A stretch of DNA of 64,000 bases from Methanomassiliicoccales archaeon (GTDB lineage: Archaea; Thermoplasmatota; Thermoplasmata; Methanomassiliicoccales; UBA472): positions 14,796-78,795 of the forward strand of contig DATJOX010000030.1 in the NCBI GenBank assembly GCA_035506675.1, written 5' to 3'. Under the pieces are notes generated by a model. It was not told the DNA's origin. It did no database searches and was given only the letters and a program-made list of their open reading frames with translations. The number at the start of each line of letters is the position of its first letter. Position 1 is the stretch's first letter. Below, piece after piece: positions 13,913 through 32,932 of this stretch. Both the position numbers and the translations under genes were made by a program.

Positions 13913-13985
13913 GGGCTCATGGTCTAGCGGTTATGACGTTTGCCTCACACGCAGAAGGTCGCCGGTTCGAATCCGGCTGAGCCCA
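13913..13985 (+). tRNA. tRNA-Val (anticodon CAC)
   Basis: Folded by hand. The acceptor stem is GGGCTCA/TGAGCCC and the D arm is GTCT..TGAC. The anticodon stem is TTTGC/GCAGA with loop CTCACAC, and the T arm is GCCGG-TTCGAAT-CCGGC. No CCA is encoded. Confidence 0.95.
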
Positions 13986-14007
13986 CTCACACTCTTATCC
14001 AGACAAT
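13973..14007. repeat. att-like direct repeat, proximal copy (tRNA-Val 3' end plus 22 nt)
   Basis: CCGGCTGAGCCCACT (13973-13987) and ATCCAGACAAT (13997-14007) both recur in the same order and orientation at 32900-32932. Confidence 0.7.
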
Positions 14008-14024
14008 TATTTATTGAATTCAAT

Positions 14025-15005
14025 TCAATCGTTTTCAGCGTTGATAGCTGGCTCGGGCTTGAAGATCGTATTGTATGCTTCATTGACCCGGGCGAACGCA
14101 GGTTCAGCTCTGGCGCGGCAATAGTACCGCTCCGTTGTCTGTGTCGATGCGTGCCTCATGCTACGAGATACCTGATCAATAGGGACGCCGGCATCGAGCG
14201 CCAACTGCCCTCCGGTCGGCCGAAAGTCCTTCCACTTGAAGCGGATACCCGCCTTCTTCATGACCTCGTCCTTGAGCCGCCCGAAGGCCTGCTGGCTATA
14301 AACTCTGACGCCCTTGCTCGAGACTGCCGGGACCAGCGTCTCGCTCCCCCTGATGCCCTTGCTCGCCAGCATCGATCCCCTGGCCTTAAGGAAATCGAGG
14401 ACGAACGGCCTGAGCACATCCGGGACCGGAAGCCGCTTGCTCTCGCCGTACAGCCCCTTCCCTTTGGGATTGGCGACCAGGAACGTCCACTTCCTCGTAT
14501 CCAAGTCCCGAAGCGAGGCCGTGCGAAGCTCGCTCGGCCTCAGGCGCAGGAACGTCAGCATTGCGATCGAGAAGCGACACGCTTCTCCCTTCCATCCGCC
14601 GACCTTCCTGCAGGCTTCGAGGATAGTGGTCAGTTCCTGCCAGTCCAGGCAGAACGGTTCCTGGACGTCGTTCCCGATGCGGATCCTGCCGTCAGCCAAC
14701 ATGTCCTCGACCACCCTATTGCCGCACTCCCGGCAAACGGAGTTCAACATCTGTACGTACTTCCGCACTGTGGAGCGCTTCCTTGCGTTGTCAGCCTTGA
14801 GCGCCACCACGATCTCGATGACGTCCGCCTCCGAGAGCTTGGTCGGGTTCGAGTTTTCGATCTTCTCCGCGTCGTAGAGCTGCTGCACCATCCTAGACAG
14901 GAATCGAAGCTTCCGCTCCCTCTCCTCGATCGTGCTCTCGCCCAACCTCGCGCGGGAGTTCCTCAGGTACCTGCGACATGCGCACGCGAAGGGGTATCTG
15001 CCCAT
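14025..15005 (-). CDS. tyrosine recombinase / phage-type integrase
   Basis: The C-terminal catalytic region has LRPSELR, FRPTGG and MRHASTQTTERYY (Arg, His and the Tyr nucleophile). The ORF opens at 15212, and the ATG at 15005 gives 326 aa. Confidence 0.85.
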   Translation of the reverse strand: MGRYPFACACRRYLRNSRARLGESTIEERERKLRFLSRMVQQLYDAEKIENSNPTKLSEADVIEIVVALKADNARKRSTVRKYVQMLNSVCRECGNRVVEDMLADGRIRIGNDVQEPFCLDWQELTTILEACRKVGGWKGEACRFSIAMLTFLRLRPSELRTASLRDLDTRKWTFLVANPKGKGLYGESKRLPVPDVLRPFVLDFLKARGSMLASKGIRGSETLVPAVSSKGVRVYSQQAFGRLKDEVMKKAGIRFKWKDFRPTGGQLALDAGVPIDQVSRSMRHASTQTTERYYCRARAEPAFARVNEAYNTIFKPEPAINAEND

Positions 15006-15269
15006 GCTCGCACCTCTTGCGTGGCTATCGGTGAAGCCGTCAGACCTCGGCCTGTGCTTGCTCGTTCGCCGGTCCGCGGCTCCAGGGGCGAGTTGTTCGC
15101 GATGCCGTGATTTCCTCGCCCCCGATAGCATAGAGCGCGGGTGCTCTGTAATCTTGCCGGTCTGTCTCGAAGCCCCGCGATGGGGGTGCGGGCCGTTGCA
15201 AGCCTCGTTCAACTTCCACTATCACCGATACAAAAGCCAATAGAGCTTGAAACGCGATTGCGAACAAGA

Positions 15270-16073
15270 ATGGGGAGCAAGGACGACCGAATCGCTGAAA
15301 TAGCCAATCCTGAGCCATGCAACGACGATTCGTTGATCAGGGATGAGGCGCTGCGTCTCAGCGGCGCCTTCAGAGCGATAGGACCGATAAACGAACGTGA
15401 CATCCGACGGATGGCCGCGAAGGGCTTGGACCATCAGCTCAAGATGGTCCTCCTGTCGCAGATGCTCTTTCCCCGACTGTGCTCGATAATCGGAAGGGGT
15501 CTTACGATCGAAGAGCTGAGCCTTCTGGTAGGACTGGATGTAGCGGCCGCGAAGAGAGCGGTGAAAGCATCGAAGCTGGCAAAGGTGGCGGACATCACAC
15601 CTGTCAAAGTCGACAGTGAGCGGTTCGTAAAGGTCATGGTGCCGCTCAAGAGGACGATCAGCACTGAGGGAGGTGAGGTTCGGGAGCGGCCGGTCAGGGA
15701 GCCTATTCTGGCACGAAGGGAATTGGTCGAGCGAGTACAGCGAGAAGGCTATGTCACGAGAGAAGGCCGAGTCCTGCGTCATGATTACCTCGGATGGTTT
15801 CAGGACCAATGCCAACCGTCTACTTCTTCCGAAGCATCAACCAAGCGAGCGAAGCAGGAACTGGCCGAAGCGGGAACGAGTTCACTAGGGAGAGCACAAG
15901 CGCTGATCAAAAATACATTCGCGCGGAGCTGGAAGCTGCCGCTGCCGTGCTGGCATTCCTGGCGCCGCTCTTCCGCAGCGAGCATGCCCAGGTCATTGTT
16001 GAGCACCTTGCGAATTTCTTCTTTGCAACATATGAGAATGCCATACACTTCGCCTCGAGGCACCAAGCGTTGA
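15270..16073 (+). CDS. hypothetical protein of the integrase module (only about 15270-15911 looks coding)
   Basis: Starts MGSKDDRIAEI... The frame looks protein-like up to about 15911, after which frame +2 takes over. Confidence 0.35.
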   Translation: MGSKDDRIAEIANPEPCNDDSLIRDEALRLSGAFRAIGPINERDIRRMAAKGLDHQLKMVLLSQMLFPRLCSIIGRGLTIEELSLLVGLDVAAAKRAVKASKLAKVADITPVKVDSERFVKVMVPLKRTISTEGGEVRERPVREPILARRELVERVQREGYVTREGRVLRHDYLGWFQDQCQPSTSSEASTKRAKQELAEAGTSSLGRAQALIKNTFARSWKLPLPCWHSWRRSSAASMPRSLLSTLRISSLQHMRMPYTSPRGTKR

Positions 16074-16270
16074 GAGACCAGGCTACGTTCGATGAAATTG
16101 AACGCTTGGTATTGCCGCTGCAAGCAGCGGCACAGGGGCTCGAGAGGAACGAGTGGATCAAGGAAGAGCGCATGAGGAAGAGCGTCGCGACGGCGATGGA
16201 CAAGGTGTTGAAGGAGCTTGAGGCTGTGATTGAAGGGCGAGCTATGCTAGTTCCCGGCGTACTCCCATAG
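15794..16270 (+). CDS. hypothetical protein / downstream half of a frameshifted gene (coding-looking from about 15911)
   Basis: KYIRAELEAAAAVLAFLAPLFRSEHAQVIVEHLANFFFATYENAIHFASRHQ... is clearly protein-like. The N-terminal 40 aa of the listed ORF are not. Confidence 0.35.
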   Translation: MVSGPMPTVYFFRSINQASEAGTGRSGNEFTRESTSADQKYIRAELEAAAAVLAFLAPLFRSEHAQVIVEHLANFFFATYENAIHFASRHQALRDQATFDEIERLVLPLQAAAQGLERNEWIKEERMRKSVATAMDKVLKELEAVIEGRAMLVPGVLP

Positions 16271-16288
16271 ATCGTCCGACAGCCCCAA

Positions 16289-16669
16289 CTAGTCCCGACG
16301 ACAACTTTCGTGGAAATACCTCATCTTCTCCACGGCTGCACTAACCTGCTGTATCTCCTTGGGATTCAACAGGTTCCAGCGGATCGGTTTGCCGCACCGA
16401 ATGCATCTTCCAAGAATGACTCCGCCAAGTGCTCTTTGGATCGCCTCTACCTCGATCGCATCTCTTTCTTGTTCCTCGATTCGTTTGTTGTTTGTCTGGG
16501 CGGCCTCAGCCATCCCCGCTCCGATGAGCACGAGTTCGCGCAGTGTCCTCCCTGCTGCGCAGAGGTTGTCGAGGCGCTTGCGCTCCTCCTCAGAGACGCG
16601 AAAGGACACTACGGGCTTCTTGGCATCGTATCGGGTTTTCGCATTTTCCCTCTTGTTCTTCGGTATCAT
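16289..16669 (-). CDS. ribbon-helix-helix-like small protein with C-terminal Cys/His motif
   Basis: 126 aa. VSFRVSEEERKRLDNL is a typical RHH beta-strand/helix start, followed by CIRCGKP...HESC at the C-terminus. Confidence 0.55.
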   Translation of the reverse strand: MIPKNKRENAKTRYDAKKPVVSFRVSEEERKRLDNLCAAGRTLRELVLIGAGMAEAAQTNNKRIEEQERDAIEVEAIQRALGGVILGRCIRCGKPIRWNLLNPKEIQQVSAAVEKMRYFHESCRRD

Positions 16670-16684
16670 CCTAATCGGTGACCA

Positions 16685-16732
16685 TATCGTTTACGACATA
16701 GATTACTATTCGTTTACGCGTATCGTTTACGA
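16685..16732. repeat. three direct TAT(T)CGTTTACG repeats (iteron/operator-like)
   Basis: TATCGTTTACGA occurs at 16685-16696 and 16721-16732, and TATTCGTTTACG at 16707-16718. They sit 16-63 nt upstream of the RHH gene start. Confidence 0.55.
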
Positions 16733-16800: not shown

Positions 16801-17589
16801 TCACGAAGACCTTGCGCGAATCGCCCTCAATAGCGCAACAAACGTGGCTTCCTCTGGCATTACATCCACCTTAACACCAAGAGCCTCCAACGCCTTCTTT
16901 GTTGGAGGACCAATCGCACCGACGAGTTTCAGATTCAAAGAGAGTCTTGCATCGGCCTCGGAGTACTTCAGGGCCCATTCAGCCACGAAGCTGTGTGCCG
17001 ACATTGAGCTAGTGAATGCAAATGCATCAACCCTCCCTTCCCTTGCCGATTTGATCACGGCCATGAGCTCATCTGACGCAACGGACCGGTGAAGTCTGTA
17101 CACGACCACCTCTCTTACAGAAACGCCGCTTGACTCAAGCCCCTCAGACATCACTTTCGATCCTTGGTCAGATCGCAGCACCCAGACCGTCCGGGGCCTA
17201 GGGCTCAAATCCGTTATCGCCTCGACTGCACCCTCGGACGTGAAACACTTGGGAACCAGGCTATCCCGCAATCCTATTCTGTCCAACCTTCGCTTGGTAA
17301 CTGGCCCGATTGAAATCAGTGGAACATGGCTCAGTCCCAGCAAGAGGGCGTCCCTCTCCCTCCGATGGTCGGCAAGATCAAACGCCGCGTCGACTCCCGT
17401 GGCCGAGGTGAACACAACCATCTCCACTTCCCTATTTGCGAGCCCCTTGAGGAATGCGGAGAACTCTTCGCTGTCATGCACCTCAACGTCGACGGGCGAG
17501 GCTGCCACTACCTCGAAGCCCATATCGCGAGCGAGCGCAATAGATTCTTGGAGTCGGTCCTTAGGGCGCATTATGGCCAGTACTGTCAT
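16801..17589 (-). CDS. hemD: uroporphyrinogen-III synthase
   Basis: 262 aa with a HemD-like two-domain pattern. The start overlaps the stop of the upstream hemC-cobA fusion by 4 nt. Confidence 0.75.
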   Translation of the reverse strand: MTVLAIMRPKDRLQESIALARDMGFEVVAASPVDVEVHDSEEFSAFLKGLANREVEMVVFTSATGVDAAFDLADHRRERDALLLGLSHVPLISIGPVTKRRLDRIGLRDSLVPKCFTSEGAVEAITDLSPRPRTVWVLRSDQGSKVMSEGLESSGVSVREVVVYRLHRSVASDELMAVIKSAREGRVDAFAFTSSMSAHSFVAEWALKYSEADARLSLNLKLVGAIGPPTKKALEALGVKVDVMPEEATFVALLRAIRARSS

Positions 17590-19220
17590 CCTAAATCCCC
17601 TAAGACCTTACGCATTCGGGCGACGTTTCCTACCACCACAACCGCGGGGGATCCAATCCCCTGGGCGCCGCAAGCTTCTGCAACGTTAGCGACCGTTGCG
17701 ACGACCGTCTTTTGCTCATCGGTGCTGCCCTTCTCGATCACGGCGACAGGGGTCTCCGGGTTCAACCCTCCTGCCACTAAAGATGTCATGTTGTGCGCGA
17801 GATTCGACATGCCCATGAGTATTACGATAGTGCCATCGAGCTTGGCAAGTGACGCCCAGTCGACGGTCTCCTTCTTCTTTCCAGCCGACTCGTGACCTGT
17901 TACGAAGGTTACCTGCGAAGCCAATCCCCGGTGGGTGACAGGGATCCCTGCCATTGCCGGTGCTGCAATCGCCGATGTGACGCCGGGTACAAGGTGCACC
18001 TTCACTCCGCGATCTCTCAAGAACTCTGCCTCTTCGCCTCCCCGGCCGAAGAGGAATGGGTCTCCTCCCTTCAGCCGAACGACTTTCTTTCCGGCTCTCG
18101 CCTCATTTAGGAGGGCTTCGTTAATCTCGTCTTGTTCGGCCTTGTGGTGCTTGCCACGCTTGCCCACGTCGACCAGTTTCACTTGTGGCGAGAGCTCCTT
18201 CAAGATACCTGAAGCGACGAGCGCATCATGAACGACTACATCCGCTTCTCGCAGCAATCTTGCGCCCTTGACCGTTATCAGTTCGGCGTCCCCGGGGCCG
18301 GCGCCTACAAGGAAGACCTCCCCCTCGTCCTCGGAGGCCGGTCTCGCCTCTGTCCAGCGTCGCTTTAGATTCTCAGCAAATCGTCTGAGCCTATCCCGTT
18401 CGGCTCCCGAATCAAGCGCGATCTCGTCCTCAATGGCTCGCTCGCCCCTCTCCTCGAGGATGTTTGCTCTTACTCGCAATTGCCCACCCTCGTGCCTAGC
18501 GTTGATACCGATTGGCAGATAACATCCTCCTCCGAGGGCCTCCAACACCGTCCGCTCGGCCTCCACTTCTTCTCGCGTCGGTGGGTCGTCCAGTCGGCCT
18601 AGGATCTCGCGGAACGGACTCTTTGTAGAACACACAACCGCTATCGCGCCCTGACCCGCGGAAGGCACAAACCTTGCAGGATCGAGGACGAAGTAGCTCA
18701 CGTCGAGCCCGAGGCGCTCGATCCCTGCCTTAGCGAGGATGATCGCATCGTACTCTCCCTCGCGCATCTTCCTGATCCTTGTGGGTACGTTCCCGCGGAT
18801 GTCCTTCGTCAGCAAGTCCGGCCTGACTCGTTTGATCAAAGCCGCGCGTCGCACGCTCGACGTCCCGATGATGGCTCCTTGCGGAAGAGACTCAAGCGGG
18901 GTCTCCGAAACGAGAACGTCCTCTGACGGACCACGACGAATCACTGCGGCGATCATCGTCCCTTCAGTGAGGTCGACGGGCATATCCTTCAGACTGTTAA
19001 CGGCCGCATCGATCTCCCCGGCCATTATCTTGGAATCCAGTTCTTTGGTGAATGCTCCGATCCCTCCGAACGACTTCAAGGGCCGGTCACGGACATCGTC
19101 GCCGGTCGTCTTCACCTTCACAATCTCAACATCCAGATCGGGTGCGACGTTTCTTAATCCGTCCACGACCATCTGCGTCTGGAACACCGCAAGGTTGCTG
19201 CCGCGGGTACCTATGATCAA
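17586..19220 (-). CDS. hemC: fusion protein: hydroxymethylbilane synthase (HemC) plus uroporphyrinogen-III C-methyltransferase (SUMT/CobA)
   Basis: The N-terminal ~290 aa (IGTRGS.LA..Q, GGIGAFTKELD) are HemC. The C-terminal ~245 aa (VFLVGAGPGDAELITVKG..LL..ADVVVHD, GGDPFLFGRGGEE, PGVTSA) are SUMT. Confidence 0.85.
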   Translation of the reverse strand: MIIGTRGSNLAVFQTQMVVDGLRNVAPDLDVEIVKVKTTGDDVRDRPLKSFGGIGAFTKELDSKIMAGEIDAAVNSLKDMPVDLTEGTMIAAVIRRGPSEDVLVSETPLESLPQGAIIGTSSVRRAALIKRVRPDLLTKDIRGNVPTRIRKMREGEYDAIILAKAGIERLGLDVSYFVLDPARFVPSAGQGAIAVVCSTKSPFREILGRLDDPPTREEVEAERTVLEALGGGCYLPIGINARHEGGQLRVRANILEERGERAIEDEIALDSGAERDRLRRFAENLKRRWTEARPASEDEGEVFLVGAGPGDAELITVKGARLLREADVVVHDALVASGILKELSPQVKLVDVGKRGKHHKAEQDEINEALLNEARAGKKVVRLKGGDPFLFGRGGEEAEFLRDRGVKVHLVPGVTSAIAAPAMAGIPVTHRGLASQVTFVTGHESAGKKKETVDWASLAKLDGTIVILMGMSNLAHNMTSLVAGGLNPETPVAVIEKGSTDEQKTVVATVANVAEACGAQGIGSPAVVVVGNVARMRKVLGDLG

Positions 19221-20497
19221 GACCTCACCACCCGTGGAAGCGCGGAAGCGAACGCGTCCAGGGAGTGGTCGACAACTGTCTTGTCATGAGCGGTGGACAA
19301 GAAGTTGGTCTCCCATTGTGATGGGGGCAGGTAGACTCCTGCTTCGAGCAGTTCACGGAAGAGCCTCATGAACAGTGCCGAGTCGCATTCCTTCGCCCCG
19401 GCGTAGTCGCGCACTTCCGCGTTGCAGAAGAACAACTGGAACATCGAGCCGATGCCTTGCACGCGATAATCGAGCCGCATGTCCTGCAGGATCTGCTCGA
19501 GACCGCGCCTCATCCTCTTGCCTTGTGAGTTCAGATCATCATGCCCCTTCCTTTCAAGAATCTCAATCGTCTTCATTCCTGCCGCGAGACTGAGCGGGTT
19601 GCCGCTGAAGGTGCCCGCCTGATACACCTTCCCTACTGGCGAGACCATCGACATAATCTCCCGCGAGGCACCGAAGACGCCGATGGGAAGGCCCCCGCCC
19701 ACGATTTTCCCGAGGGTGGTGATGTCGGGTCGGATTCCGTAGTACTCTTGCGCTCCGCCCATGGCCAATCGGAATCCAGTGATGACCTCGTCGAATATCA
19801 GTAGGATCGAGTTCTCCTCAGTGAGCTCCCTTAGCCCCCGCAGATAGTCCTCATCGGGGAGGATGGGACCTGCATTTCCAATAACTGGTTCCAGGATCAA
19901 AGCAGCCACCTGGTCACTCTCGGCCTTAATCAGTCTCGACATGGCGTCGAGGTCGTTGAACGGGACGAGCAGTGTGTTCGAAGTGACCTCCCCAGGGATG
20001 CCGAGTGAGTCGGGGGTGCTATGGGTCGTCGCTCCTGATCCGGCCTTTACCAGCAGAGCGTCATGGGCTCCGTGGAAGGCGCCTTCAACTTTGATTATCT
20101 TCTTCTTGCCGGTGTAGCCTCTTGCCACTCTCAAAGCATGCATGGTGGCCTCGGTCCCGGAACTCACGAAGCGCATCATTTCCATTGAGGGGTAGTATCG
20201 CGAGATCAACCTCGCCATCTCCACCTCCTTTTCGATCGGCGCGCCGTAAAGGACCCCTTGCTGTGACTGCGCTTTGATTGCCTCAACGACCTCAGCCCTG
20301 GCGTGACCCAGTATGAGAGGGCCGAAGCCCATGCAGTAATCGATGTATTCGTTCCCATCGACGTCGGTCATGTGTGCGCCTTTGGCTCTTGCCATGTACC
20401 TTGGATAAGGGGCGAATGCCCTGACCGGGCTGGAAACGCCTCCAGGCAGCAGCAACCTGGCTTCCTCGAAAAGCTCCCGCGAGATGCGACTGGTCAC
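19217..20497 (-). CDS. hemL: glutamate-1-semialdehyde 2,1-aminomutase
   Basis: 426 aa, a class III aminotransferase with the HemL pattern (SR.LFE.A...PGGV.SPVRAF, FDEV.TGFR). Confidence 0.9.
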
Positions 20498-21471
20498 TTC
20501 GATCCTCCTCTCAGCATCTCCGCTGCCTCAAGCGCGTGATAGGTGATTATCATGTCAGCACCGGCGCGTTTGATCGAAAGCAGCGTTTCCATTATCATCC
20601 GCTCCCCATCAATCCAGCCACGTTGCGCGGCCGCTTTCAGCATTGAATACTCTCCGGAAACATTGTAGGCGGCAATTGGCACCCTGAATTCTCGTCTCGC
20701 GGCGGAGATTACGTCCAGATAGGCGAGGGCAGGCTTGACCATGATGATGTCTGCCCCCTCATTGAGGTCGAGCTCCATCTCCCTCAGCGCTTCCCTGACG
20801 TTGGCAGGGTCCATCTGATGGCTCTTGCGGTCCCCGAATTTCGGAGCTGACTCAGCCGCATCCCTGAACGGTCCATAGAAAGCCGATGCGAACTTGGCAC
20901 TGTATGCCATGATGGCGACATCCTCGAACCCCTTTTCGTCCAAAGCGGCGCGAATCGCTGCAACCTGCCCATCCATCATGCCGCTTGGCGCGATAATGTC
21001 CGCTCCCGCCCCCGCCTGGCTTTGCGCCACCTTGGCGTAGAGCCTGAGTGTCTCATCGTTCTCGATTTTACCTTTACGTAGGGCTCCACAGTGCCCGTGC
21101 GAGGTGTACTCGCAAAGGCAGAGATCTGTGACTACTGCGACGTCTGATACCCTCTTGATCTCCATTACTGCCTTCTGGACGATTCCGTTCTCATCCCAAG
21201 CGCTGCCTCCCTCTTCGTCCTTCATTGCAGGTATCCCAAAGAGGAGAACCGCCGGAATTCCCAGAGCCTCGGCCCTCTTCGCTTCCTTCGCTACCTCGGA
21301 AAGCGGCAACGCTTCCACCCCCGGCATCGAAGGGATGGGCTTGCGCTTGCGAATCCCCTCGTTCACGAAGAACGGGTAAATGAGATCGTTCTGGGTGAGC
21401 ACAGTCTCACTGACCATCTGCCTAGTCTTCGGCCGCATGCGCAGTCTTCGCATTCGGTTCTCTGGGAACAT
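20494..21471 (-). CDS. hemB: porphobilinogen synthase (ALA dehydratase)
   Basis: 325 aa with RMRRLR, LIYPFFV, an active-site region and ITY.A at the C-terminus. Confidence 0.9.
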
Positions 21472-22729
21472 GCTTGTCTGCCTCCACCTTAAACAGTTCT
21501 TTCACGAGCTCGGAGTAGCGCACATCCCCATCATGCGCCGCCCCCTTGAGCACCTGCGTTGGATCAGCGAGGAAGCGGTAGATGAGCGAGTTCGCGAAAT
21601 CCTCCACCACGTTCTCTGATGTCTCGCCCGCCTTTATGCGGTTCAGCGCCTTGCGCACCTCCCGCTCCTTGATGTCATTGAATTTCTGGTAAAGTGAGCC
21701 GATGGCAATCTCCGCCGCCATTTCGTCCAGCCTCTTGGACAATACCTGAAGCTCTTCGCCGATGATGCGTTCAGCGTCCTTCACCTCGCCCTTCCGCTTG
21801 ACGATGTTGTCCGCCGCGACGCCGCGAAGTCCGTCAATGTCATAGAGTTCGACACCGGGAATATCGGCGACATCAGGCGCCACGTTCCTTGGCATGCTTA
21901 CGTCGATTATCATCAACTTCCCTCGACCGTTGCGGATCTCCATCGCGGAATCGATGTGTCGCTTCTCAAGAATCATGTGCGTCGCTGATGTCGCGCACAG
22001 CACCACATCGCTTTGAGCGAGGAATTCCAAGAGTGAATCAAAGCGCACTGCCTTCCCGTTCAACGCGAACGCGAGTTCCACCGCCCTGGAGTAGGTGCGA
22101 CTAGAAACGAATACCGCCTCCGGCTCCTTTCCGATGAGGTGCCTTGCCACAAGGGTGGCCATCTCTCCGGCCCCGATTACTAGCACGTTCCGCCCCTTCA
22201 GCGGTCCGAGCTTCGATTCCGCGAGCTCCACAGCCGCGCTGCCAACCGAGACGCAGCCCTTGCTCAGTCTCGTTTCCGACCTGACCTTCTTGCCGACGCT
22301 GATCGCCTTCCGGAAGACTATGCTCAAGATCGGTCCGATGCATCCATCGCGACAAGAAACGTCAAAAGCCTCCTTAACCTGCGACTGGATCTGGTCCTCG
22401 CCGATTATCATCGACTCGAGGCCTGAAGAGACGCGGAGGAGATGTCTTATCGAATCGTTTCCCGAAAGAAACTGCACAAGATTCTGGTGGCTGTCATAGG
22501 GAATGAATGAGTTGACGAATACCTCGAGTTCGCGCCTTGTCGCTTCCCAGTCATTCGTCACCGTGTAAATCTCGACTCGATTGCATGTCTTCAGCACGAC
22601 GCACTCTCTGACCCCCTGCATCTTGCGCAGCGCGCTAAGGAGATAGAACACGTTTCGGCTGCCTATCAGCTCAAGCTTCTCCACGCCAACGCTTTTGTGC
22701 GTAATGTGGGCGCTAAGGATTGCGTCCAA
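21422..22729 (-). CDS. hemA: glutamyl-tRNA reductase
   Basis: 435 aa with [23 protein letters not shown] and VIGAGEM motifs. Confidence 0.9.
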
Positions 22730-23342
22730 TGGATCCCTCCAGCTTCTGCATAGCCAGGCTCATTGCCTTCTTCTTGTCCAATCTCAGTTCTTCCCAGATC
22801 ATGTTGTCTTCAAGTATCATGCGTAACAGCCGCTCTCTTTCCGATTGTTGTCCAATTCTGCGTTTCGCAATCACACGCATATCGCGTTGCAGATCGACCA
22901 TATCTTCGCATCCCTCGGGTAACCCTTCCTGGACGCGTAGACTGAGGAAGCGTGCCATCGCAGGACTGTTGCCCATTGTTGAAATCGCAATCGTGAAGTT
23001 ACGCTTCTGCACCGTGGATGGAATTATGAAGGACGATATGCCATCCGCTCGGTTGCATGGCTTGCCAAGATCAATCGCGATTGCGCAGATGCGTCCATTC
23101 AATTCAGTATCGTCGGTTGCCGCCACGACGAAATCGGCTCCTTCGATCCAGGGCCGAGGATCACTTGAAGCATCGGAGCGAATCAACTCGATCTGAGTAT
23201 TTTGGAAGGCCTTCACGAAATCGAGGCTAATCACAGCGACCCTCGCCTCGGATGCGAAGTAACTCGCCTTACGGAATCCTACTTCTCCGCCACCGAACAC
23301 GACGATTCTTTTACCGACTAGATCCAAGAATAACGGCAGCAA
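22713..23342 (-). CDS. sirC: precorrin-2 dehydrogenase / sirohydrochlorin-forming SirC (CysG N-terminal domain type)
   Basis: LPLFLDLVGKRIVVFGGGEVG is the typical N-terminus. TTG at 23342 gives 209 aa; the ORF formally opens at ATG 23474. Confidence 0.7.
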   Translation of the reverse strand: MLPLFLDLVGKRIVVFGGGEVGFRKASYFASEARVAVISLDFVKAFQNTQIELIRSDASSDPRPWIEGADFVVAATDDTELNGRICAIAIDLGKPCNRADGISSFIIPSTVQKRNFTIAISTMGNSPAMARFLSLRVQEGLPEGCEDMVDLQRDMRVIAKRRIGQQSERERLLRMILEDNMIWEELRLDKKKAMSLAMQKLEGSIGRNP

Positions 23343-23993: not shown

Positions 23994-23995
23994 GT

Positions 23996-25285: not shown

Positions 25286-26367
25286 CCGACGTACTCCATC
25301 CCCGCCCGAATCCAATTGTCGCCGCTATGTATACCCTTCGCGACCTGGATGCTGATGTCGTCATCATTCACGGGCCTGCGGGGTGTGGGTTCATGGCCTC
25401 GAGGAGGCTGGAGGAGGCGGGGGTCAGGGTCGTCACAACCGGAATGAGGGAAGGGGATCTGATCTTTGGAGCCGAAGAGAAGCTCATCAACGTCCTTATG
25501 CATGTCGAGAAGGAGTTCCATCCGAAGCTGGTGGGGATCGTAGGCACCTGCGCCAGCATGATAATCGGCGAGAATCTAGACTCGGCGATCAAGAAGGCGA
25601 AGATTCAGGCTACAGTAATTCCAGTTGACATACACGGGTGCGCCGGCCCGAACACATCCGGTGCGATCAGGACCCTCGAGGTGGCGGCGCAACGAGGCGT
25701 AGTCCCTCAAGAGGAGATGGAACGCCAGAGGGACATGCTGAACCGCGCAACCCTACTGGAACAGGAAAAAGGGATGACCTCGAGAACATATCTCGAACCG
25801 CACAATGGCGCGACCAAACTCGAGGTGGCGCTTGAAGTCGTCTGCACCTTGCGCAGGGGCATGAGCGTCGGTGTTGTCTTGAACGCGAAGAAGGAGACAG
25901 CGTTTGGATTCGCGGATGTGATGCGCGCGGTAGAATATGCACGCAAGAAGGTGGGGGGCCGAACTGTTCATTTGGGCAATCTCGCCCTTGGTGTTGGACT
26001 GCCCCGCATCAGGCGTTACGCGGCAGAGATAACACGCGACCTGCAAGCGGCCGGTGTCGATCTATCCTGCATAACCGGTGGACTAGACGAATACCCAGTC
26101 GCAGGTGAGATTGCTGCGCACTTTCTAGATGAGAGGCCGGTCGATCTTCGGGTCATCGCCGGGCTACCGCACGCGATCCCGGGAATTAGGGCGGATGACG
26201 TGCTCGTCACAGATCAGCCGAGAGAGCTGCGCAACTTGATCGACCGGGGGTTTGCCCGCTCAGTCGGGGAAATCAACACCCATGCCCAGGTCATGAACGC
26301 CCATTCCATTCTCCCGAACGAGCTGGGGCAGACGATTCGGCAAGTAGTGGACGGGGGCCTGGCGTGA
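25282..26367 (+). CDS. cfbD: Ni-sirohydrochlorin a,c-diamide reductive cyclase, NifD/NflD-like subunit (CfbD)
   Basis: Nitrogenase-component-1-like ([10 protein letters not shown]). The start is TTG 25282, overlapping the cfbE stop, or the upstream in-frame start at 25258 where the ORF opens. Confidence 0.75.
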
Positions 26368-27155
26368 GGCAAATCGCGATCTACGGGAAGGGCGGCATCG
26401 GGAAGTCAACGATCTCCGCCAACGTTGCTGCCGCGATGGCCGAAAAGGGCCTCGTGACCTGGTACGTGGGATGCGATCCGAAGAGCGATGGCTCAATGAC
26501 GCTCATGGCCGGAAGGAGGATCGACACGCTCTTGGAACAAATGAAGAACCAAAGCGAATCCCGCTATGAGATATGCACTGGTTACGCGGGCGTCCGGTGC
26601 GTCGAGATCGGCGGCCCGCTGGCAGGAGTGGGATGCGCCGGTCGGGGAATAATTGTCGCCTGCCAGGCGCTCAGGAGAGACTACTTTTCGAAGGAGAGCA
26701 TCGACGTCATAATCTACGATGTCCCCGGTGACGTTGTGTGCGGCGGCTTCGCGGCGCCATTACGTGAAAGGTTCGCGGATGAGGTTTACATCGTCACCAG
26801 CGGCGAGTACCTGGCTCTATTCGCTGCGAACAACATCGCCAAGGGATTGAAGAATCTGAACATTAGGCTCGGTGGAATCATTTGCAACTCTCGCGAGGTA
26901 CCGAACGAGGAACAGGTCTCCAAGGAGTTTTCTCGGAAGATCGGCACGGCCTTCACCGGCTTCATACCAAGGGACCCCATTGTCAGAGAATGCGAAAACA
27001 AAGGCGAGACCGTAATCGAGTGCGTGCCGGGGAGCAAGCAGGCAGAAGCATATCGGAGGCTCGCTGATTCCATTTTGAGTAACGAGAGATTCACAGTACC
27101 CGAACCAATGGCGCCCGAAACAATAAGGGAAATGCTGAGGGAACTGGGATCATGA
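26364..27155 (+). CDS. cfbC: Ni-sirohydrochlorin a,c-diamide reductive cyclase, NifH-like ATPase subunit (CfbC)
   Basis: [14 protein letters not shown]-loop and cluster cysteines in GVGCAGRG and DVVCGGFA. It has 4-nt overlaps with both neighbours. Confidence 0.85.
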
Positions 27156-28513
27156 ACGTTCGCAGGGTGGTAATCGCGGGCGTAGGAAGCGGCGTAGGTA
27201 AAACCACCATCGCGACTGGCATCATGGCTTTGCTCTCAAGACAATATCGCGTTCAGGCGTTCAAAGTGGGTCCAGACTTCATCGATCCAATGTATCACTC
27301 AGCAGCAACGGGCCGTCCCTCACGCAACCTCGATTCCTTTTTCATGGATGGACCGACGCTCGAGAACCTGTTCGGATGGGCTTCCCGAGATGCAGACATC
27401 GCGATCATCGAAGGAGTGCGTGGACTATACGACGGACTCACTTCAACAGGGGATGTGGGATCAACCGCTGAAATCGCCAAGATGCTCGACGCGAGCGTGA
27501 TCCTTGTGCTAAATGCGCGCTCTCTCGCCAAGAGCGCAGCGGCTCAGGTACTGGGATTCAAGATGCTCGATCGGCAGGTTAGGCTTGAGGGCGTAATCCT
27601 CAACCAGGTGTCTGGGCCACGCCATCGACAGAAAGCGATCGAAGCAGTCGAGCAGCTCACTTCGACCCCTGTCATCGGAGTCGTGGAACGCAGGAATGAG
27701 AGCTTCCCAGAACGCCATTTGGGACTAGTCACGATGCCCGAGAGAGACGCCGCTGAAACCATTGCGACAACCAAGGAATACGCAGCAGGGGTAGACCTAG
27801 ATCAGCTAATGGCCGCGGCGGAGAACCGTGGAGAGCGTAGCTTTCCAGAAGCATGCCCATTCATCCAGGAAGACGGCCCACGAGTCAAGGTTGGCGTCCC
27901 TCGTGATCGAGCGTTCTCGTTCTATTACCCTGAGAATATCGAGTCGATGCGAGCAGCTGGCGCTGAGATTGTGGAGTTTCACCCTACCGATGGAGATGGA
28001 CTACCAGAAGCCGATTCGTACTACTTGGGGGGTGGATATCCAGAGGTCTACGCGTCGAGACTGAGCGACAATACGGACTTCCTGGATGGGCTGAAGACGG
28101 TCTCGGACCAAGGAAGACTTGTTTATGGTGAGTGCGGTGGTCTGATGGTCCTGTGCACCTCGATTTTGGATGGGAGGTCAGAGCACCCGATGGCGGGAGT
28201 CTTTGAGTCGAAAGCTGAACTTACTCTTCATAGACAAGGACTGGCTTATGTCATGGCCCGTGCAACTGCTGACAACTTTGTTTTCCAAGGGGCCGAAATA
28301 CGAGGTCACGAGTTCCACTATTCGAAGCTTGTGCCGCTTCCTCGGGGCCCCTACGCGTACGACGTGAAGAGGGGCACGGGAATCGATGGCAATCACGATG
28401 GGATCCTGAAGAACCATACGGTTGGCACCTACATGCATCAGCACGCACTCGCGAACAAGGAGTGGGGGCGCGGTTTCATCAGAGCGACTATCGATTCGCT
28501 TGCAGGACGTTGA
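27152..28513 (+). CDS. cfbB: Ni-sirohydrochlorin a,c-diamide synthase (CobB/CbiA family, CfbB)
   Basis: 453 aa with [11 protein letters not shown], an [10 protein letters not shown] motif and a C-terminal glutamine-amidotransferase part ([15 protein letters not shown]). Confidence 0.85.
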
Positions 28514-28542: not shown

Positions 28543-28971
28543 TCAATCGTGCCTGTGGTCGGTGACTTCTCCGGCCAGCAGAACGGGCTCTGTCGTGAGA
28601 ACGGATTTCACTGAAGCCAGACCCTCGTGCAACGCCCTCACCGTCCCGAGACTTCCGTGCACGACAAGCACTTCGAGGCACTTCTCATTGTCCAGGTGCA
28701 CGTGAATCGCTGAGGTAATCACACCATGGTAGTGATGCTGAACGTCTGTCAGGTGATCCTTGACGCTTCCTCGGTTGTGATTATAAAGTAGTGTTATCGT
28801 TCCCACGGCGTGAGCCTCGTTGTCCTTGATTGATTCCTGTACGAGAACCTTTCGTACAAGATCGCGGATGGCCTCCGAGCGAGTGGCGAAGCCTTTCTCT
28901 TGAATGAACCTGTCGAATTCCTCGAGCAGCTTGGGTTCAAGTGATACGCCAATCCTGGTTACCTTTTCCAT
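28543..28971 (-). CDS. nikR: nickel-responsive regulator NikR
   Basis: 142 aa with an N-terminal RHH (RIGVSLEPKLLEEFD, RSEAIRDLV) and a C-terminal metal-binding domain carrying His/Cys ligands (HHYH, HVHLD, C). Confidence 0.85.
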   Translation of the reverse strand: MEKVTRIGVSLEPKLLEEFDRFIQEKGFATRSEAIRDLVRKVLVQESIKDNEAHAVGTITLLYNHNRGSVKDHLTDVQHHYHGVITSAIHVHLDNEKCLEVLVVHGSLGTVRALHEGLASVKSVLTTEPVLLAGEVTDHRHD

Positions 28972-29082
28972 TAGGTTGTCGTACGGGGTTTCTGGCTCAA
29001 AAGGGTTGCCTTCACTTTTCCCTTCGACTTGAGCTAACTGCTGTTATGGCGTCTGCTCGTGCTCTCATGCCGAATGATTGAA

Positions 29083-29958
29083 TCATGTGTGGGGACTCTC
29101 ATGGATGTGGAATCGATCCCCTCTTTTCATGATCGCGTCAACCGCTTCGTCAATCGAGAATGGAAGTTCACTGGTATGATAACCGCAAGACGAAAGCACT
29201 CGGAAAAGGTGGGTGACCTCGGGTACATCCAGATTAGCTCTGTCCAGCAACGCCTCATCGGAAAGGACGTCGCGCACGCTCCCGCAGGCGATTAGGTTTC
29301 TCTTCAGCACCACGATACGCTTGGCGAAGTCCGGGACGGCGTTCACGTCGTGGGTGGCCACGATGACTGTTTTCCCCTCCCCAGAGAGGCGCTTCAGTAT
29401 GTCGATGACTGACTTCCTACTCCGCGGATCCAGGTCTGAAGTTGGCTCGTCGAAGAGGATTATCTCCGGCTGAATCGACAGCACACTGGAGATGGACACT
29501 TTCCTCTTCTCTCCTCCGCTCAACCGGTATGGTGCACGGTCCTTCAGATGCGAAATGCCCAGAGCGTCCAGAGCCGCGTTTCCTCTAGCTACCACATCGG
29601 CAGGCGAGAGGCCCATGTGCAGCGGTCCAAAGGTGACGTCATTCCACACCGAGGAACTGAAAAGGGCAACGTCTGAATCTTGGAAGACAATGCCCAGCTT
29701 CACTCGGAGCCAGTCCAGGTCGTGAGGTCGATCGATGCTGCGCCTGTCGATTTCCTTACCGCACACACGGACCGTTCCATCTGTGGCCGGTACTAGGCCG
29801 GCTATGACCTGCAGCAGAGTGGACTTTCCGGCACCGTTGGGACCGATAATGGCCACCGATTCTCCAGGATAGACGTCCAAGGACACGCTCTCTAGAGCGG
29901 CGTGTCCATCGGGATAGCTAAAGGAGACGCTTCTCAGAGATACTACGGGTTCAGACAT
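29083..29958 (-). CDS. cbiO: ECF transporter ATPase (CbiO/NikO type)
   Basis: Walker A GPNGAGKST, ABC signature LSGGEKRK and Walker B ILFDEPTS. Confidence 0.9.
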   Translation of the reverse strand: MSEPVVSLRSVSFSYPDGHAALESVSLDVYPGESVAIIGPNGAGKSTLLQVIAGLVPATDGTVRVCGKEIDRRSIDRPHDLDWLRVKLGIVFQDSDVALFSSSVWNDVTFGPLHMGLSPADVVARGNAALDALGISHLKDRAPYRLSGGEKRKVSISSVLSIQPEIILFDEPTSDLDPRSRKSVIDILKRLSGEGKTVIVATHDVNAVPDFAKRIVVLKRNLIACGSVRDVLSDEALLDRANLDVPEVTHLFRVLSSCGYHTSELPFSIDEAVDAIMKRGDRFHIHESPHT

Positions 29959-30831
29959 TCAGATATAGACCCCCATGGTCGCCAGTAGACTCTTGTAGGT
30001 GACCTGCGCGGCGAAGAGATCGAAAAGGACGACCACCGCCCCGAACGCAATTATCGCGGCGACGAGGGCATAGTCTCTCCAACCGCTTTTCGATGTGCTC
30101 AGTATCTTCGGGTCTCCGGCGTAACCCCGCGACAGCATCGCCAGGTAGACCTGCTCGCTCATATGAAGAGATTTCGAGAATAGGCTTGCCACTGAAGAAC
30201 CTCCGATGTTTCGAAGCTCAGCGGTGGTCGGTTTTCCAACCATGCGGCTCTTCCGGGCCATGAACATGTTCGCTACCGTGTCCAAAAGCACATGGATGTA
30301 GCGATAGGCCATATCCAATATGGTTATGAACGAAGAGGGGAAGCCAAGCTGCGCCAGCGCTCTCATCAACTTGGACCACTCCACCGACGCCACCAACAGG
30401 ATACTCAACGAGACAGCTGCCCCTACTCTAAGAGTGAATGTCAGCGCGTACAGCAATCCCTCGAGGGTGAAGTAGACGGTCGTGTCAAGAAGGCTGATGC
30501 TTTGCCCAACCATGCGGCCGGGCGTTATCAGGTTAGTCATGCTCGGCAGCAGGATCATCACCGTGAACAAGGGAATGAACAGCCAGACCCTCTTCAGGTA
30601 CCACCTCATGGGAACCCTGGAAGTTAAGGCCATTGCGTTGGCGAAGATGATGACTGCCAGGAGGCTGAGCGGGTTCTTCAGCAATACTGCCACCACCAAA
30701 AGAGAGATCAAGAGAACGAAGACGAAACGGGGGTCGGCGCTCTGCAACCAGCCATTTCGTCGAGAGATTGTCTCCAGATCGAGCGAGTTACGTAATACCT
30801 TCACCACGCCGTTTAATACTCGCTCGAACAC
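29959..30831 (-). CDS. cbiQ: ECF transporter transmembrane T component (CbiQ/NikQ type)
   Basis: 290-aa multi-pass membrane protein located between the ATPase and CbiN/M genes. Confidence 0.8.
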   Translation of the reverse strand: MFERVLNGVVKVLRNSLDLETISRRNGWLQSADPRFVFVLLISLLVVAVLLKNPLSLLAVIIFANAMALTSRVPMRWYLKRVWLFIPLFTVMILLPSMTNLITPGRMVGQSISLLDTTVYFTLEGLLYALTFTLRVGAAVSLSILLVASVEWSKLMRALAQLGFPSSFITILDMAYRYIHVLLDTVANMFMARKSRMVGKPTTAELRNIGGSSVASLFSKSLHMSEQVYLAMLSRGYAGDPKILSTSKSGWRDYALVAAIIAFGAVVVLFDLFAAQVTYKSLLATMGVYI

Positions 30832-30844
30832 TTTCCGCCACCTG

Positions 30845-31162
30845 TCACTTGTTCTCCTCTTGGATGCTCCTTCGCCCGAAAATGGTGCTCATTGCATACG
30901 TCACAAGAATGATAGCTGCAATCCCAACCAATGCCGAAATGATGTAGCCAAGTGAAGCCATGAGCTGACTGTCCCACCCGCTCAGGTCGTAGCCGTCCAG
31001 TGGAGCGCTCCACACTTTCCAAGGCACCCAGTTGCCCACCGAACCCCATTCTCCCCAGGCTTCCGAGAAGTTCCATACAACAAGGATACCTAGAGGCGAT
31101 ATTACAGCAAGCGCCAATAGGATTGCCAGCGTCTTCTTCGACATCAGCTTCGTCATGTTCAA
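30845..31162 (-). CDS. CbiN/NikN-like small membrane protein (PDGLE-type)
   Basis: 105 aa with N- and C-terminal TM helices flanking a W-rich periplasmic loop with APLDGYDL. Its position in the operon supports the call. Confidence 0.65.
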   Translation of the reverse strand: MNMTKLMSKKTLAILLALAVISPLGILVVWNFSEAWGEWGSVGNWVPWKVWSAPLDGYDLSGWDSQLMASLGYIISALVGIAAIILVTYAMSTIFGRRSIQEENK

Positions 31163-31932
31163 CTCTCTCCCTTAGCTTCGACTGGGACTCTTTCCTTCCT
31201 TGCCCCTTCATGCGATTCTGTCGGCTCTACATCCTTATAGACGCCTCGTAGCCAGCCAGGAGAGAGCTTGGGTAGCCTGAGAAGATCGGGCCGGTTCTCC
31301 GCTAGGTAATAGACGACTATGGCCGTGGTCAGGCCTTCGGCTATGCCGACTAAGAGGTGGGCTCCCACCATCGCCGGAATCGCGACATCAAGTCCATACG
31401 GTGAGTAGCCAGGAGCGATGATTGGCTGGATGCCGAACTCCACGGAGCCGCAGAACGCTGCCACAACAATGCCGATGTAGCCCCCCACAAAGGCCGACGC
31501 AGCCCTCGCCTTGGAGGTCAGTTTGCCGTCTTTGGTCAGGAGCTTCTTCACCCCGGCATATGCGAAGATGCCAGTGAAGGACATGACCACGCCCATGTTG
31601 AATACATTGGCCCCATACGCGGTCACACCGCCATCGCCGAACAACAGTGCCTGGATCAACAAGGCTATGCTGAGGGCAATGACTCCTCCGTACGGCCCCA
31701 ATACGATTGCGATGAGGACAGCGCCGACCATATGTGCCGTTGTGCCATCCGGTATCGGCAAATTGAACATCATCAGAATGAAGGACAAGGCGGCCATGAA
31801 TGACAGCACGGGCACGTTCCTAGGTCCTAGATTCTTGTTTGCGTTTCTGAATGCGAAAAACCATATGACTAGCATGACCAAGAACAAAGTTATGAAGGTT
31901 GCCGGTCCCAAGTATCCGTCTGGTATGTGCAT
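31159..31932 (-). CDS. cbiM: ECF substrate-capture component CbiM/NikM
   Basis: The N-terminus MHIPDGYL is the metal-binding signature of CbiM/NikM. It is a multi-pass membrane protein. Confidence 0.9.
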   Translation of the reverse strand: MHIPDGYLGPATFITLFLVMLVIWFFAFRNANKNLGPRNVPVLSFMAALSFILMMFNLPIPDGTTAHMVGAVLIAIVLGPYGGVIALSIALLIQALLFGDGGVTAYGANVFNMGVVMSFTGIFAYAGVKKLLTKDGKLTSKARAASAFVGGYIGIVVAAFCGSVEFGIQPIIAPGYSPYGLDVAIPAMVGAHLLVGIAEGLTTAIVVYYLAENRPDLLRLPKLSPGWLRGVYKDVEPTESHEGARKERVPVEAKGES

Positions 31933-31955
31933 TTTGATATCCCCATAACACGTTT

Positions 31956-32004
31956 CACGTAACTTTGCTACCGGTATTGCAAGAAGGGTATTTCAAAGTT
32001 CGTG
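31956..32004. promoter_or_regulatory. inverted repeat upstream of the cbiM/nikM operon (candidate NikR operator)
   Basis: CACGTAACTTTG (31956-31967) and CAAAGTTCGTG (31994-32004) are reverse complements apart from one extra T. The spacer is 26 nt, and the repeat lies 24-72 nt upstream of the start codon. Confidence 0.3.
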
Positions 32005-32899
32005 ATATTTCTAATGGAAAAGTGTTATCGGACGCTGACAATAACCTCCACACAAATGCAAGTTGCATCGAAAATGTCACAACCGGTTCGAATTTGGATT
32101 GGATCATAAAGGAAGAGATAAGGTTAGTGAGCCTCGATTTACTCGTCGACGAGTCTGCCAAGAAACGCCACGATGATTTGAATCAGCAAACCGAGCCGTG
32201 GCCAAGTCTATTCGTCGGCATCATCGAGAACGTCCCAGGGGAGCGCGGGGTCGACAGCTCCTCGTTTCATGTGGTTGCACGTATTGAACTTGATTGAGTG
32301 CTACCAATTTTATAATAGTAACACGCTCACCCCCACCGACAAAAGCGGCGGTTCTTATGCGGCTCAATCACCAACGAGCTCCTCCTTTCCGCTGCTTTCT
32401 GTCATATCCTTATCATGTCTATGTTCTTTGAACCGCCGCACAAGGCGTAGTGTCGCCGAGATGGCTAGGCACACGGATTTCCTGCATCATGGTGCGCCTC
32501 ATTGTGATGCAAATAGAGCCGACAGGCCGATCCCCAACGTAGCGCCTTGTTCGTTGGCCGAGTGAATAAGGAAGAAAGTGTTTCCTGAAAAGAACCCATT
32601 AATCCGTTTCTGTCTCCTGGTTTGGGAGTGGATTTCACCTTCAATTCCACTGGAGAAATGCATTGCCGGCTGGAGTTAGGATTCGACTTCGGACAGATCC
32701 ACTTTCGATTCCAACCTCGGAATCTGATCGCTGGACTTCTTGCATGTCGAGTTCGGGCAGACCCACCAGTAACGGGCATCTTCGATTGACGACCGAGTCG
32801 AAGAAAAAGAAGTGTAAAAGGGTTTTCTGAGCTGGCTCACGTTCTAACTCGAATGAATAGAATTCCATTTGGATCATCTGGCTAGACGGCTGTGTGGTC

Positions 32900-32932
32900 C
32901 CGGCTGAGCCCACTTCCATCAATCCAGACAAT
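32900..32932. repeat. att-like direct repeat, distal copy
   Basis: CCGGCTGAGCCCACT (32900-32914) and ATCCAGACAAT (32922-32932) are identical to 13973-13987 and 13997-14007. Confidence 0.7.

Follow-up and report, generated by a model that had tools for sequence, protein, structure and literature searches.

Integrative elements of type II in archaea (the pNOB8/lambda-like class) are characterized by an intact integrase gene beside a rebuilt tRNA gene and by a short repeat of the tRNA 3' end at the far end of the element. Metabolic islands linked to tRNA genes in bacteria likewise have a tRNA target, an integrase at one end, direct repeats and a deviant GC content. In outline, both descriptions apply to the tRNA-Val(CAC) locus considered here, which lies within a 64,000-nucleotide stretch (hereafter, the window) of contig DATJOX010000030.1 from a Methanomassiliicoccales archaeon; the source is a 79.8-kb metagenome contig (ENA ERZ27256505) of a Methanomassiliicoccales metagenome-assembled genome (MAG). 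At this locus, a tyrosine integrase gene and direct repeats of the tRNA end, 18.9 kb apart, bound a block of genes that would lead from glutamyl-tRNA to coenzyme F430, accompanied by genes for NikR and for a nickel/cobalt importer of the energy-coupling factor (ECF) type. Methyl-coenzyme M reductase (MCR) cannot do without F430 and its tetrapyrrole precursors, and the genes for F430 and the haem precursors generally count as core markers of methane metabolism that are inherited vertically. The reading favoured here, to which a probability of roughly one in two is given, is that the tRNA-Val(CAC) locus is an integration hotspot holding a composite island of ~27.6-28 kb, with the cofactor genes as cargo inside its integrase-bearing part, module A (13,973-32,914).

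Both tandem integration and integrase loss have been documented for archaeal elements (PMC8371274), and, within the Methanomassiliicoccales, isolate ISO4-H5 has a 32-kb excising element (PMC5011839). Besides the layout of integrase, tRNA and distal repeat, the present locus shares with type II elements the reuse of its target, as seen at related loci that have a tandem remnant (L006) or a truncated integrase (L079). It differs from them in having no plasmid or virus backbone, in an integrase that belongs to a separate family, and in a cargo that is a complete, essential cofactor pathway rather than a set of accessory or ORFan genes. With the bacterial islands it has in common presence/absence polymorphism between close strains as well as module accretion; here, however, the island resides in an archaeal methanogen, its cargo is of a kind normally single-copy and indispensable in such organisms, and the gene upstream of the tRNA is itself part of the divergent stretch. 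Mobile or extrachromosomal DNA with genes of methane metabolism is known from the Borgs and the jumbo elements of Methanoperedens (PMC9605863, PMC13444090). One jumbo element, 409 kb in size, is integrated at tRNA-Asp and has 14-bp repeats and an adjacent tyrosine integrase (PMC13444090), while the Black Borg carries cfbB and cfbC, which are considered recent acquisitions from its host (PMC9605863). Whereas those elements span 50-1000 kb, are self-replicating and carry partial pathways as extra copies, the unit described here is a compact 19 kb without replication genes, occurs in a different order of archaea and holds the whole Glu-tRNA-to-F430 route together with nickel uptake, in what seems to be the working copy. 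The mechanism by which neighbouring chromosomal genes would come to be enclosed between att sites resembles that of specialised transduction (lambda gal/bio) and of composite islands made by aberrant excision, although no phage functions are present here and the capture step is a reconstruction. In the literature searched, no description was found of a compact, att-bounded unit with a complete Glu-tRNA-to-F430 route and nickel uptake, nor of this integrase family or its tRNA-Val specificity.

Direct repeats and mirrored arms at the two ends

The single tRNA gene of the window, according to ARAGORN and Rfam, is an intact tRNA-Val(CAC) at 13913-13986 (+), the putative integration target. Its last 13 nt and the 2 nt beyond, CCGGCTGAGCCCACT (13973-13987, +), make up the proposed attL core, or crossover region, of which an exact copy in the same orientation, the distal att core, is present at 32900-32914 (+). 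A second block, ATCCAGACAAT (13997-14007), recurs in register at 32922-32932, behind spacers of 9 and 7 nt, and the direct repeat unit measures 18,927 bp. These two repeats were the starting point of a preliminary description of the stretch, and the sequence is as it had them. The chance expectation of 6e-5 that it attached to them is of the right order for one pre-specified 15-mer under a uniform model, but makes such a repeat look rarer than it is in real sequence; the window contains 12 maximal exact direct repeats of at least 15 nt, and Markov-2 simulations yield a mean of 4.5 repeated 15-mers. When a pre-specified 50-nt query, consisting of the last 21 nt of the tRNA and 29 nt downstream, was aligned with the distal site, the gapped match scored 18, with 33 of 35 aligned columns in agreement apart from two 1-nt gaps; 4 of 1486 random 50-mers from the same window scored equally well elsewhere (Gumbel p ~1.3e-3). 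The match is real and unlikely to be due to chance, yet not astronomically improbable.

The two ends also mirror each other, an observation independent of those made in the preliminary description. The proposed P' arm of the element, 13988-14031 (+), holds TCCAGACAAT (13998-14007) and ATTGAATTCAATTCAATCG (14013-14031), the second of which contains a palindrome and overlaps the int stop codon; both are conserved beside related integrases. Approximately 31 nt to the left of the distal core, the proposed P arm motif CGAATGAATAGAATTCCAT (32850-32868) matches 14013-14031, ~25 nt to the right of the tRNA core, at 16 of 19 positions in inverted orientation. Based on comparison with shuffles, random 70-mers and GC-matched 70-mers, this match has a p of ~0.001-0.004. 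Joined, the two ends would form a dyad-symmetric attP, in the order arm, core, TCCAGACAAT, arm. Since mirrored arms are predicted by a single-element model, and not by chance or by models with two tRNA genes, they argue that the ends belong together. To the right of the distal core, the sequence is again P'-like (32915-32932, +), with TCCAGACAAT at 32923-32932.

The possibility that the distal repeat is a decayed tRNA gene, which had been put forward as a check, is unsupported; similarity to a tRNA 5' end upstream of the distal core is not significant by alignment (p 0.14-0.20), and the Rfam tRNA covariance model has no match at the distal site even at E<=10. A third att copy was looked for near 41.6 kb and between hemD and the small open reading frame orf126, and none was found. 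Left-flank and island proteins occur together on one 46,975-bp contig of an independent assembly from JGI, and a Logan contig (L161) is 100% identical over cbiM, the gap that follows, the distal repeat and the cardiolipin synthase gene cls. With both junctions reproduced in independent assemblies (JGI, Logan), a chimera is disfavoured.

The integrase and its family

The tyrosine recombinase, or integrase, gene that had been noted beside the tRNA (14025-15005, -; 326 aa) is full-length, and its catalytic domain (residues 121-295) scores above the gathering score of PF00589 (36.4 bits versus 27.1), with a further match to PHROG_1 (integrase) at E 7.7e-22. The candidate catalytic residues, which were assigned by eye from motif order, are R156, K183, K259-x-x-R262, H285 and Y294/Y295, all invariant in 12 family members. 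An identity as XerA was rejected, the score against the NCBIfam XerA equivalog being 36.5 versus a cut-off of 220. The stop codon lies 39 nt past the tRNA end, an arrangement in which the gene would stay intact after integration, as in the archaeal type II layout. There are about 50 homologues at 55-78% identity, and all those with a source name come from Methanomassiliicoccales MAGs; PDB holds no relative. Judged from these matches, the integrase appears to define a separate, uncharacterised family that is restricted to the Methanomassiliicoccales.

Every relative examined that has an intact integrase adjoins a tRNA-Val-type 3' end. The closest, at 78% (P0123), is located at tRNA-Val(CAC) in three JGI loci (L007, L009 and L011) whose left flank is that of the window, i.e., a radical SAM gene, three KaiC-like genes, an SQHop-like gene and tRNA-Val(CAC), all ~70% identical to the window at the nucleotide level. 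An identical P0123 integrase, with the same interior, is found in four other loci (L005, L006, L008 and L010) at a different, intron-bearing tRNA gene that has its last 30 nt in common with tRNA-Val. Since the same integrase stands at two different tRNA genes, at least one element of the family has moved. A 68% relative (P0134, L013-L022) adjoins tRNA-Val(GAC), and the family as a whole appears to target the common 3' end of tRNA-Val-type genes.

The att sites of these relatives resemble that of the window. Following the tRNA core, the int-adjacent sites of L005/L007, L006 and L079 have the motif TCCAGACA(A/G)(T/C), and the site of L013 has a motif of the TCCAGACA type with one mismatch (TCCAGATAAT); the TCCAGACA motif is absent from the empty site of a sister strain (see below). 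The sequence ATTGAATTCAATTCAATCG at the integrase stop is also present in L005, L007 and L079, with a diverged version in L013. In L006 (11040-11115), the order is tRNA end, 45-nt P'-type stump (TCCAGACAGT...), a second, 11-nt copy of the core, and then the P' arm and integrase of the current element; what remains of the earlier att unit, between the tRNA and this element, amounts to 55 nt. This tandem arrangement looks like something left behind by a previous occupant of the site, and L079 retains only the last ~170 nt of the integrase gene.

The intron-bearing tRNA gene (L005 11017-11124, -; also in L006, L008 and L010) is itself unusual, being 108 nt long with an intron of ~33 nt. It is missed by ARAGORN with default settings; with -i it is called as Ala(GGC), with an anticodon-loop intron and without a G3:U70 pair, and it reads as tRNA-Val(UAC) if the intron is placed between the D arm and the anticodon stem. 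From its position beside P0123, it is probably a second target of the integrase family. The interior of the P0123 elements contains ORFs of 218, 205 and 226 aa and one for an RHS/YD-repeat protein of 2817 aa (TEN_YD-shell; positions 1-6645 of L005-L008), a polymorphic-toxin-like cargo that is unusual for a methanogen.

The cofactor cargo

The gene content first listed for the stretch, namely int, three small ORFs, hem genes and sirC, cfb, nikR and cbi, and then cls, was borne out. The sirC-hemA-hemB-hemL-hemC/cobA-hemD operon (16801-23474, -) would cover the steps from glutamyl-tRNA to sirohydrochlorin, and the divergent genes cfbA, cfbE, cfbD, cfbC and cfbB (23595-28513, +) those from sirohydrochlorin to F430. 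These are followed by nikR and by cbiO, cbiQ, cbiN and cbiM (28543-31932, -), the last four encoding a cbi/nikM-N-Q-O-type ECF nickel/cobalt transporter. All of the cargo ORFs are intact. CfbE and CfbD exceed the cut-offs of their models (NF033197, 293 bits versus 250; TIGR03282, 402 versus 268), CfbC (360 bits versus 402) and CfbB (511 versus 560) fall below exception-level cut-offs, with CfbB passing the CobB subfamily model, and CfbA is a 132-aa protein with a CbiX domain. As judged from these matches, the F430 pathway is complete, with all five Cfb enzymes present and intact. A CfbA-CfbE fusion, hinted at by a 620-aa ORF, was ruled out; cfbA (23595-23993) is in another frame.

Scanning GTDB species representatives with a HemC/CobA alignment gave a synteny set of 30-odd Methanomassiliicoccales loci; a scan of genome contigs with the CfbA/E ORF as the single query found nothing. 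In the nearest loci of the set (L023, L029 and L050), hemD is followed by nikR-cbiOQ(N)M, with amino acid identities of 56-72%, and the genes of relatives are all about 65-68% identical to the window at the nucleotide level. The HemC (hydroxymethylbilane synthase) of the window is fused to CobA (uroporphyrinogen-III methyltransferase; 17586-19220, -), a fusion that is common across the Methanomassiliicoccales. Its matches, among those listed, run from Methanomassiliicoccales proteins at 60-64% to unnamed two-domain proteins at 43-47% and to HemC-CobA-HemD triple fusions at ~44%, a few of them named as coming from Clostridia such as Anaerobutyricum and Eubacterium. This pattern is a hint that the fused gene passed between domains long ago.

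Between int and the operon lie orf186 (15222-15782, -), orf153 (15809-16270, +) and orf126 (16289-16669, -), none of which has a family assignment or a Pfam match. Their sole PHROG match is a weak one of orf126 to a repressor (E 0.005), and orf186 is an ORFan, without relatives among 1.84e9 representative proteins. By reading of its sequence, orf126 was judged to have a ribbon-helix-helix-like N terminus and a C-terminal CxxC pair; structure predictions for orf126 (pLDDT 44) and orf186 (pLDDT 31) were unusable. Upstream of orf126, between it and hemD, are three exact copies of TCGTTTACG (16687-16731, +), spaced by 23 and 13 nt, which look like iterons or an operator for this small, regulator-like gene. 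At the other end of the cargo, the 967 nt from 31933 to 32899 are gene-poor, non-coding or decayed, with a GC content of 48%, and the last ~70 nt would be the P arm. Directly upstream of cbiM, at 31942-32031, there is a 15-nt inverted repeat (CCCATAACACGTTTC / GAAAAGTGTTATCGG, 87% complementary, 60 nt apart) that could be a NikR operator or a promoter element.

A sister strain, composition and the extent of the island

Two independent assemblies, L080 (NCBI MAG GCA_035623815.1) and L081 (JGI Ga0187777), represent a sister strain that is nearly conspecific with the source of the window. Both have, in order, the KaiC-like gene, an SQHop-like allele, an identical tRNA-Val(CAC), 123 nt of other sequence, and then the sequence of the window from 41,645 onward. 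Nucleotide identity to the window is 96-97% in the KaiC-like gene and 93-94% from 41,645 onward, and the beta-lactamase-fold protein and CobW encoded there are 98% and 93% identical at the amino acid level. In the sister strain, the tRNA is thus followed, 123 nt on, by the gene that lies at 41.7 kb of the window, with no island there. The empty site that the preliminary description had proposed looking for does exist in this strain, but its tRNA-Val abuts the metallo-beta-lactamase-fold gene and not, as had been expected, cls; the site is empty for 13.99-41.64 kb rather than for the 18.9-kb unit, and the sequences beside the tRNA are not collinear with the window. When the 123 nt downstream of the sister tRNA were compared with the window, no significant match was found beside the distal core or at 41.6 kb.

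The two strains differ over 12,857-41,645 of the window, a segment that reaches 8.7 kb past the distal repeat. Its left edge (12857-13912, +), as placed by blastn of L080 and L081 against the window, contains the SQHop-cyclase-like gene (12915-13856, +), for which the sister allele is 69% identical at the nucleotide level and 57-58% at the amino acid level (L080 1174-2157 and L081 402-1331). In a tree of the alleles, that of the sister strain (P0196) is the outgroup to all alleles of the clade, and so variable a gene suggests recombinational replacement at the edge of the hotspot. Because the variable segment is wider than 18.9 kb, the distal repeat is best read as an internal junction of a composite island, beyond which lies a part B (32933-41644) that is low in GC, has no integrase and is missing at the sister locus. 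The attL-int...attR layout reported for the 18.9-kb interval is real, but it does not enclose the whole island.

Protein clusters at 90% identity agree with this picture of conserved flanks around strain-specific DNA. The right anchor and 7 of 10 left-flank proteins have cluster members (>=90%) in the sister MAG, as opposed to none of 12 island proteins; the clusters of those flank proteins also include many other small contigs. Island proteins, in turn, have 90% cluster members only in assemblies of the strain itself, i.e., the ENA contig, the 46,975-bp JGI contig and Logan contigs L161/L162 (100%). The protein search was word-filtered, so that little weight attaches to its failure to show closer homologues beyond the 90% clusters. 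Among the 80 loci returned by a search of JGI metagenomes with the beta-lactamase-fold anchor, only L081 was close enough to inform.

Composition also sets the block apart, as had been suggested as a check. Windows of 4 kb that lie wholly in the flanks have a GC content of at least 0.585 (about 0.59-0.63) and a tetranucleotide correlation of at least 0.90, and those wholly within 14-42 kb have a GC content of 0.53-0.58 and a correlation of 0.56-0.90. The limits of the compositional anomaly are those of the segment missing from the sister strain. A search for a native hem cluster of the host by tetranucleotide signature was uninformative.

A composite island at tRNA-Val(CAC)

Considering the repeats, the integrase, the empty site and the composition together, the interpretation of this block as an integrative island is supported in part, but not as regards its extent, a single clean integration or the synteny of the cargo. 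In the sequence of events that we favour, module A would be an integrative element of type II (lambda/pNOB8-like), whose tyrosine integrase brought about recombination between a circular attP and the tRNA-Val 3' end, so that the tRNA was restored at attL and a second copy of the 15-nt core, in direct orientation, came to lie at the opposite end. Its cargo would be the 15-kb block from glutamyl-tRNA to F430 with NikR and the nickel/cobalt ECF importer, captured either by aberrant excision beside an integrated copy or by recombination inside an element. Module B (32,915-41,644) would be an older island, without an integrase, that was pushed away from the tRNA when A integrated, and the P'-like sequence at 32915-32932 would be the attL stump of this older island, which had lost its integrase. 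The recurrence of the 11-mer in register could then be ascribed to the P'-type stump (TCCAGACAAT) that module B keeps, the motif being absent from the empty attB. That module A moved as one unit together with its cargo, and in this order of events, is our reconstruction, as is the corollary that the island now supplies the working genes of the cell for F430 and the haem precursors. The unit is probably fixed, because F430 is essential and excision would be lethal unless another copy exists.

Several observations weigh against a composite island that was built by site-specific integration. The strain-variable segment starts to the left of the tRNA, and this break, together with the absence of the 123 nt of the sister strain from the window, means that the strains are not separated by one clean site-specific insertion. 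No att is recognisable at the right end of part B. Among the sampled lineages, the tetranucleotide signature of the island is nearest to that of the host group. Replication, transfer or virion genes were not found in the element, relatives of its integrase are absent from IMG/VR and from the phage collection, and in the plasmid collection there were just two matches, both bacterial, weak and partial (27-28% identity). Compared with related integrase elements, the window shares the int gene alone, the small ORFs and a 1.2-kb gap having no similarity, and no attR of these elements was found within the 10 kb examined. Finally, the order cfbB-C-D-E-A <> sirC-hemA-B-L-C/cobA-D is present in about 20 of the 30-odd loci of the synteny set, within none of which was an integrase homologue or a tRNA-Val-like sequence found up to 10 kb from hem/cfb; a conserved order is what vertical inheritance would give. 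Relatives with the block but without an integrase had been named beforehand as a finding that would tell against an island, and such loci do exist. They can, however, be read otherwise, since a gene order typical of the order Methanomassiliicoccales points to cargo captured as a native block from a Methanomassiliicoccales chromosome rather than to exotic DNA. As for the break to the left of the tRNA, homologous exchange of the whole hotspot between conserved anchors has probably also occurred.

A stronger form of this account would have the 18.9-kb unit be, or recently have been, a self-integrating 'cofactor cassette', a minimal element driven by its integrase that carries the whole pathway from glutamyl-tRNA to F430, along with the nickel importer and its regulator, from one Methanomassiliicoccales genome to another by way of tRNA-Val genes, there to replace or supplement the resident copy. 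This more ambitious version is doubtful.

Alternative explanations

The alternative that survives best, though we hold it to be distinctly less probable than a composite island, is allelic replacement by homologous recombination between the conserved anchors, with the KaiC-like gene, which ends at 12,858, on one side and the beta-lactamase-fold gene at 41.7 kb on the other. The hem/cfb/nik genes would then be ordinary neighbours of tRNA-Val in a donor lineage and never have been moved by the integrase, and the integrase module and the distal repeat would be fossils of separate, older integrations. Such an exchange accounts for a divergence break at 12,857, on the left side of the tRNA, instead of at the att core, for a compositional anomaly that occupies 12.9-41.6 kb and not 14.0-32.9 kb, and for a sister SQHop-like allele that is the outgroup to all others despite flanks that are 93-97% identical. 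The unusual conservation of the anchors (a cluster at >=90% identity with 95 members for KaiC3, and 98% identity for the beta-lactamase-fold protein) and the order-typical synteny of the cargo also suit it. However, it leaves unexplained the copy of the tRNA 3' end, in direct orientation, beyond the cargo and the mirrored arm to the left of the distal core; a circle with the cargo would still have had to integrate in the donor lineage, and in no relative examined is hem/cfb beside tRNA-Val. Allelic replacement is, moreover, compatible with the composite-island model as a later, added step, in which an already composite locus was transferred.

Considerably less likely is an arrangement of two elements around native chromosome, in which hem/cfb/nik lay between two occupied tRNA-Val genes. 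The proximal element would have lost its attR, and the distal tRNA-Val would have decayed to its 3' end plus a P' stump (part B), the result mimicking attL...attR. Members of the integrase family do use several tRNA genes per genome, and the right side of the distal core is of P' type and thus attL-like. Upstream of that core, at roughly the right distance, GGCTCAcGtTCTA resembles a tRNA 5' end, and GGCTCA could also pair with the TGAGCC of the core, but this resemblance is not significant (p 0.14-0.20), and the tRNA covariance model, as noted, is without a match there at E<=10. Nor is there any tRNA-Val-like sequence <=10 kb from the hem cluster in the 30-odd relatives. Two elements do not predict the inverted arm motif, and they leave the empty site unexplained, as the sister strain would lack essential genes at the locus.

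Coincidence or artefact, whether as a decayed integrase remnant by the tRNA with a chance 15-mer far away or as a metagenomic chimera, is very improbable, since, even if exact direct 15-mers are not rare in the window and the source is a metagenome contig, the match at a pre-specified site has an empirical p of ~1e-3, a family-specific motif in register and an independent inverted arm accompany it, both junctions are reproduced in JGI and Logan assemblies, and the integrase is full-length with conserved residues.

Neighbouring genes

On the left, a radical-SAM activase-like gene is followed by three paralogues for KaiC/RAD55-like ATPases (with DUF7125) at 9071-12858 (+). This cassette is syntenic in all relatives that have the same tRNA-Val(CAC) locus, and its third KaiC paralogue is extremely conserved, with 95 members in a 90%-identity cluster. 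Part B encodes the cardiolipin synthase, an ArsR/FilR1-like regulator, a DUF1269 protein, an M50-like protein, a response regulator with PAS domains, a photolyase and small membrane ORFs. The cardiolipin synthase gene, cls (33118-34584, -), is of bacterial type (TIGR04265, 530 bits), although it is located in an archaeon and in this low-GC part. The right anchor (41645-42407, +) comprises the promoter and coding sequence of the metallo-beta-lactamase-fold gene (41730-42407), and between that gene and cobW there is a G/A-rich, imperfect short tandem repeat (AGGGNGTGNNGAAGG units) at 42540-42609.

Implications for methanogen biology

The locus suggests that 'core' cofactor genes of methane metabolism can sit in the flexible, and possibly mobile, part of the genome. 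If so, cfb and hem phylogenies, and the presence or absence of these genes in MAGs, would not be clean lineage markers, and there would be a compact and testable route by which the cofactor supply of MCR-based metabolism is spread or replaced. An integrase family specific to the Methanomassiliicoccales, whose tRNA-Val attB is defined and whose attP can be reconstructed, would also be a candidate genetic tool for an order that has almost no genetics. Even when read conservatively, the locus clearly exemplifies how essential genes can be caught within an integration hotspot. Were the 18.9-kb unit itself a transferable cassette, F430 supply would be part of a transferable gene pool, and such units would offer a concrete vehicle for the patchy, horizontal-transfer-marked distribution of methane and alkane metabolism in archaea.

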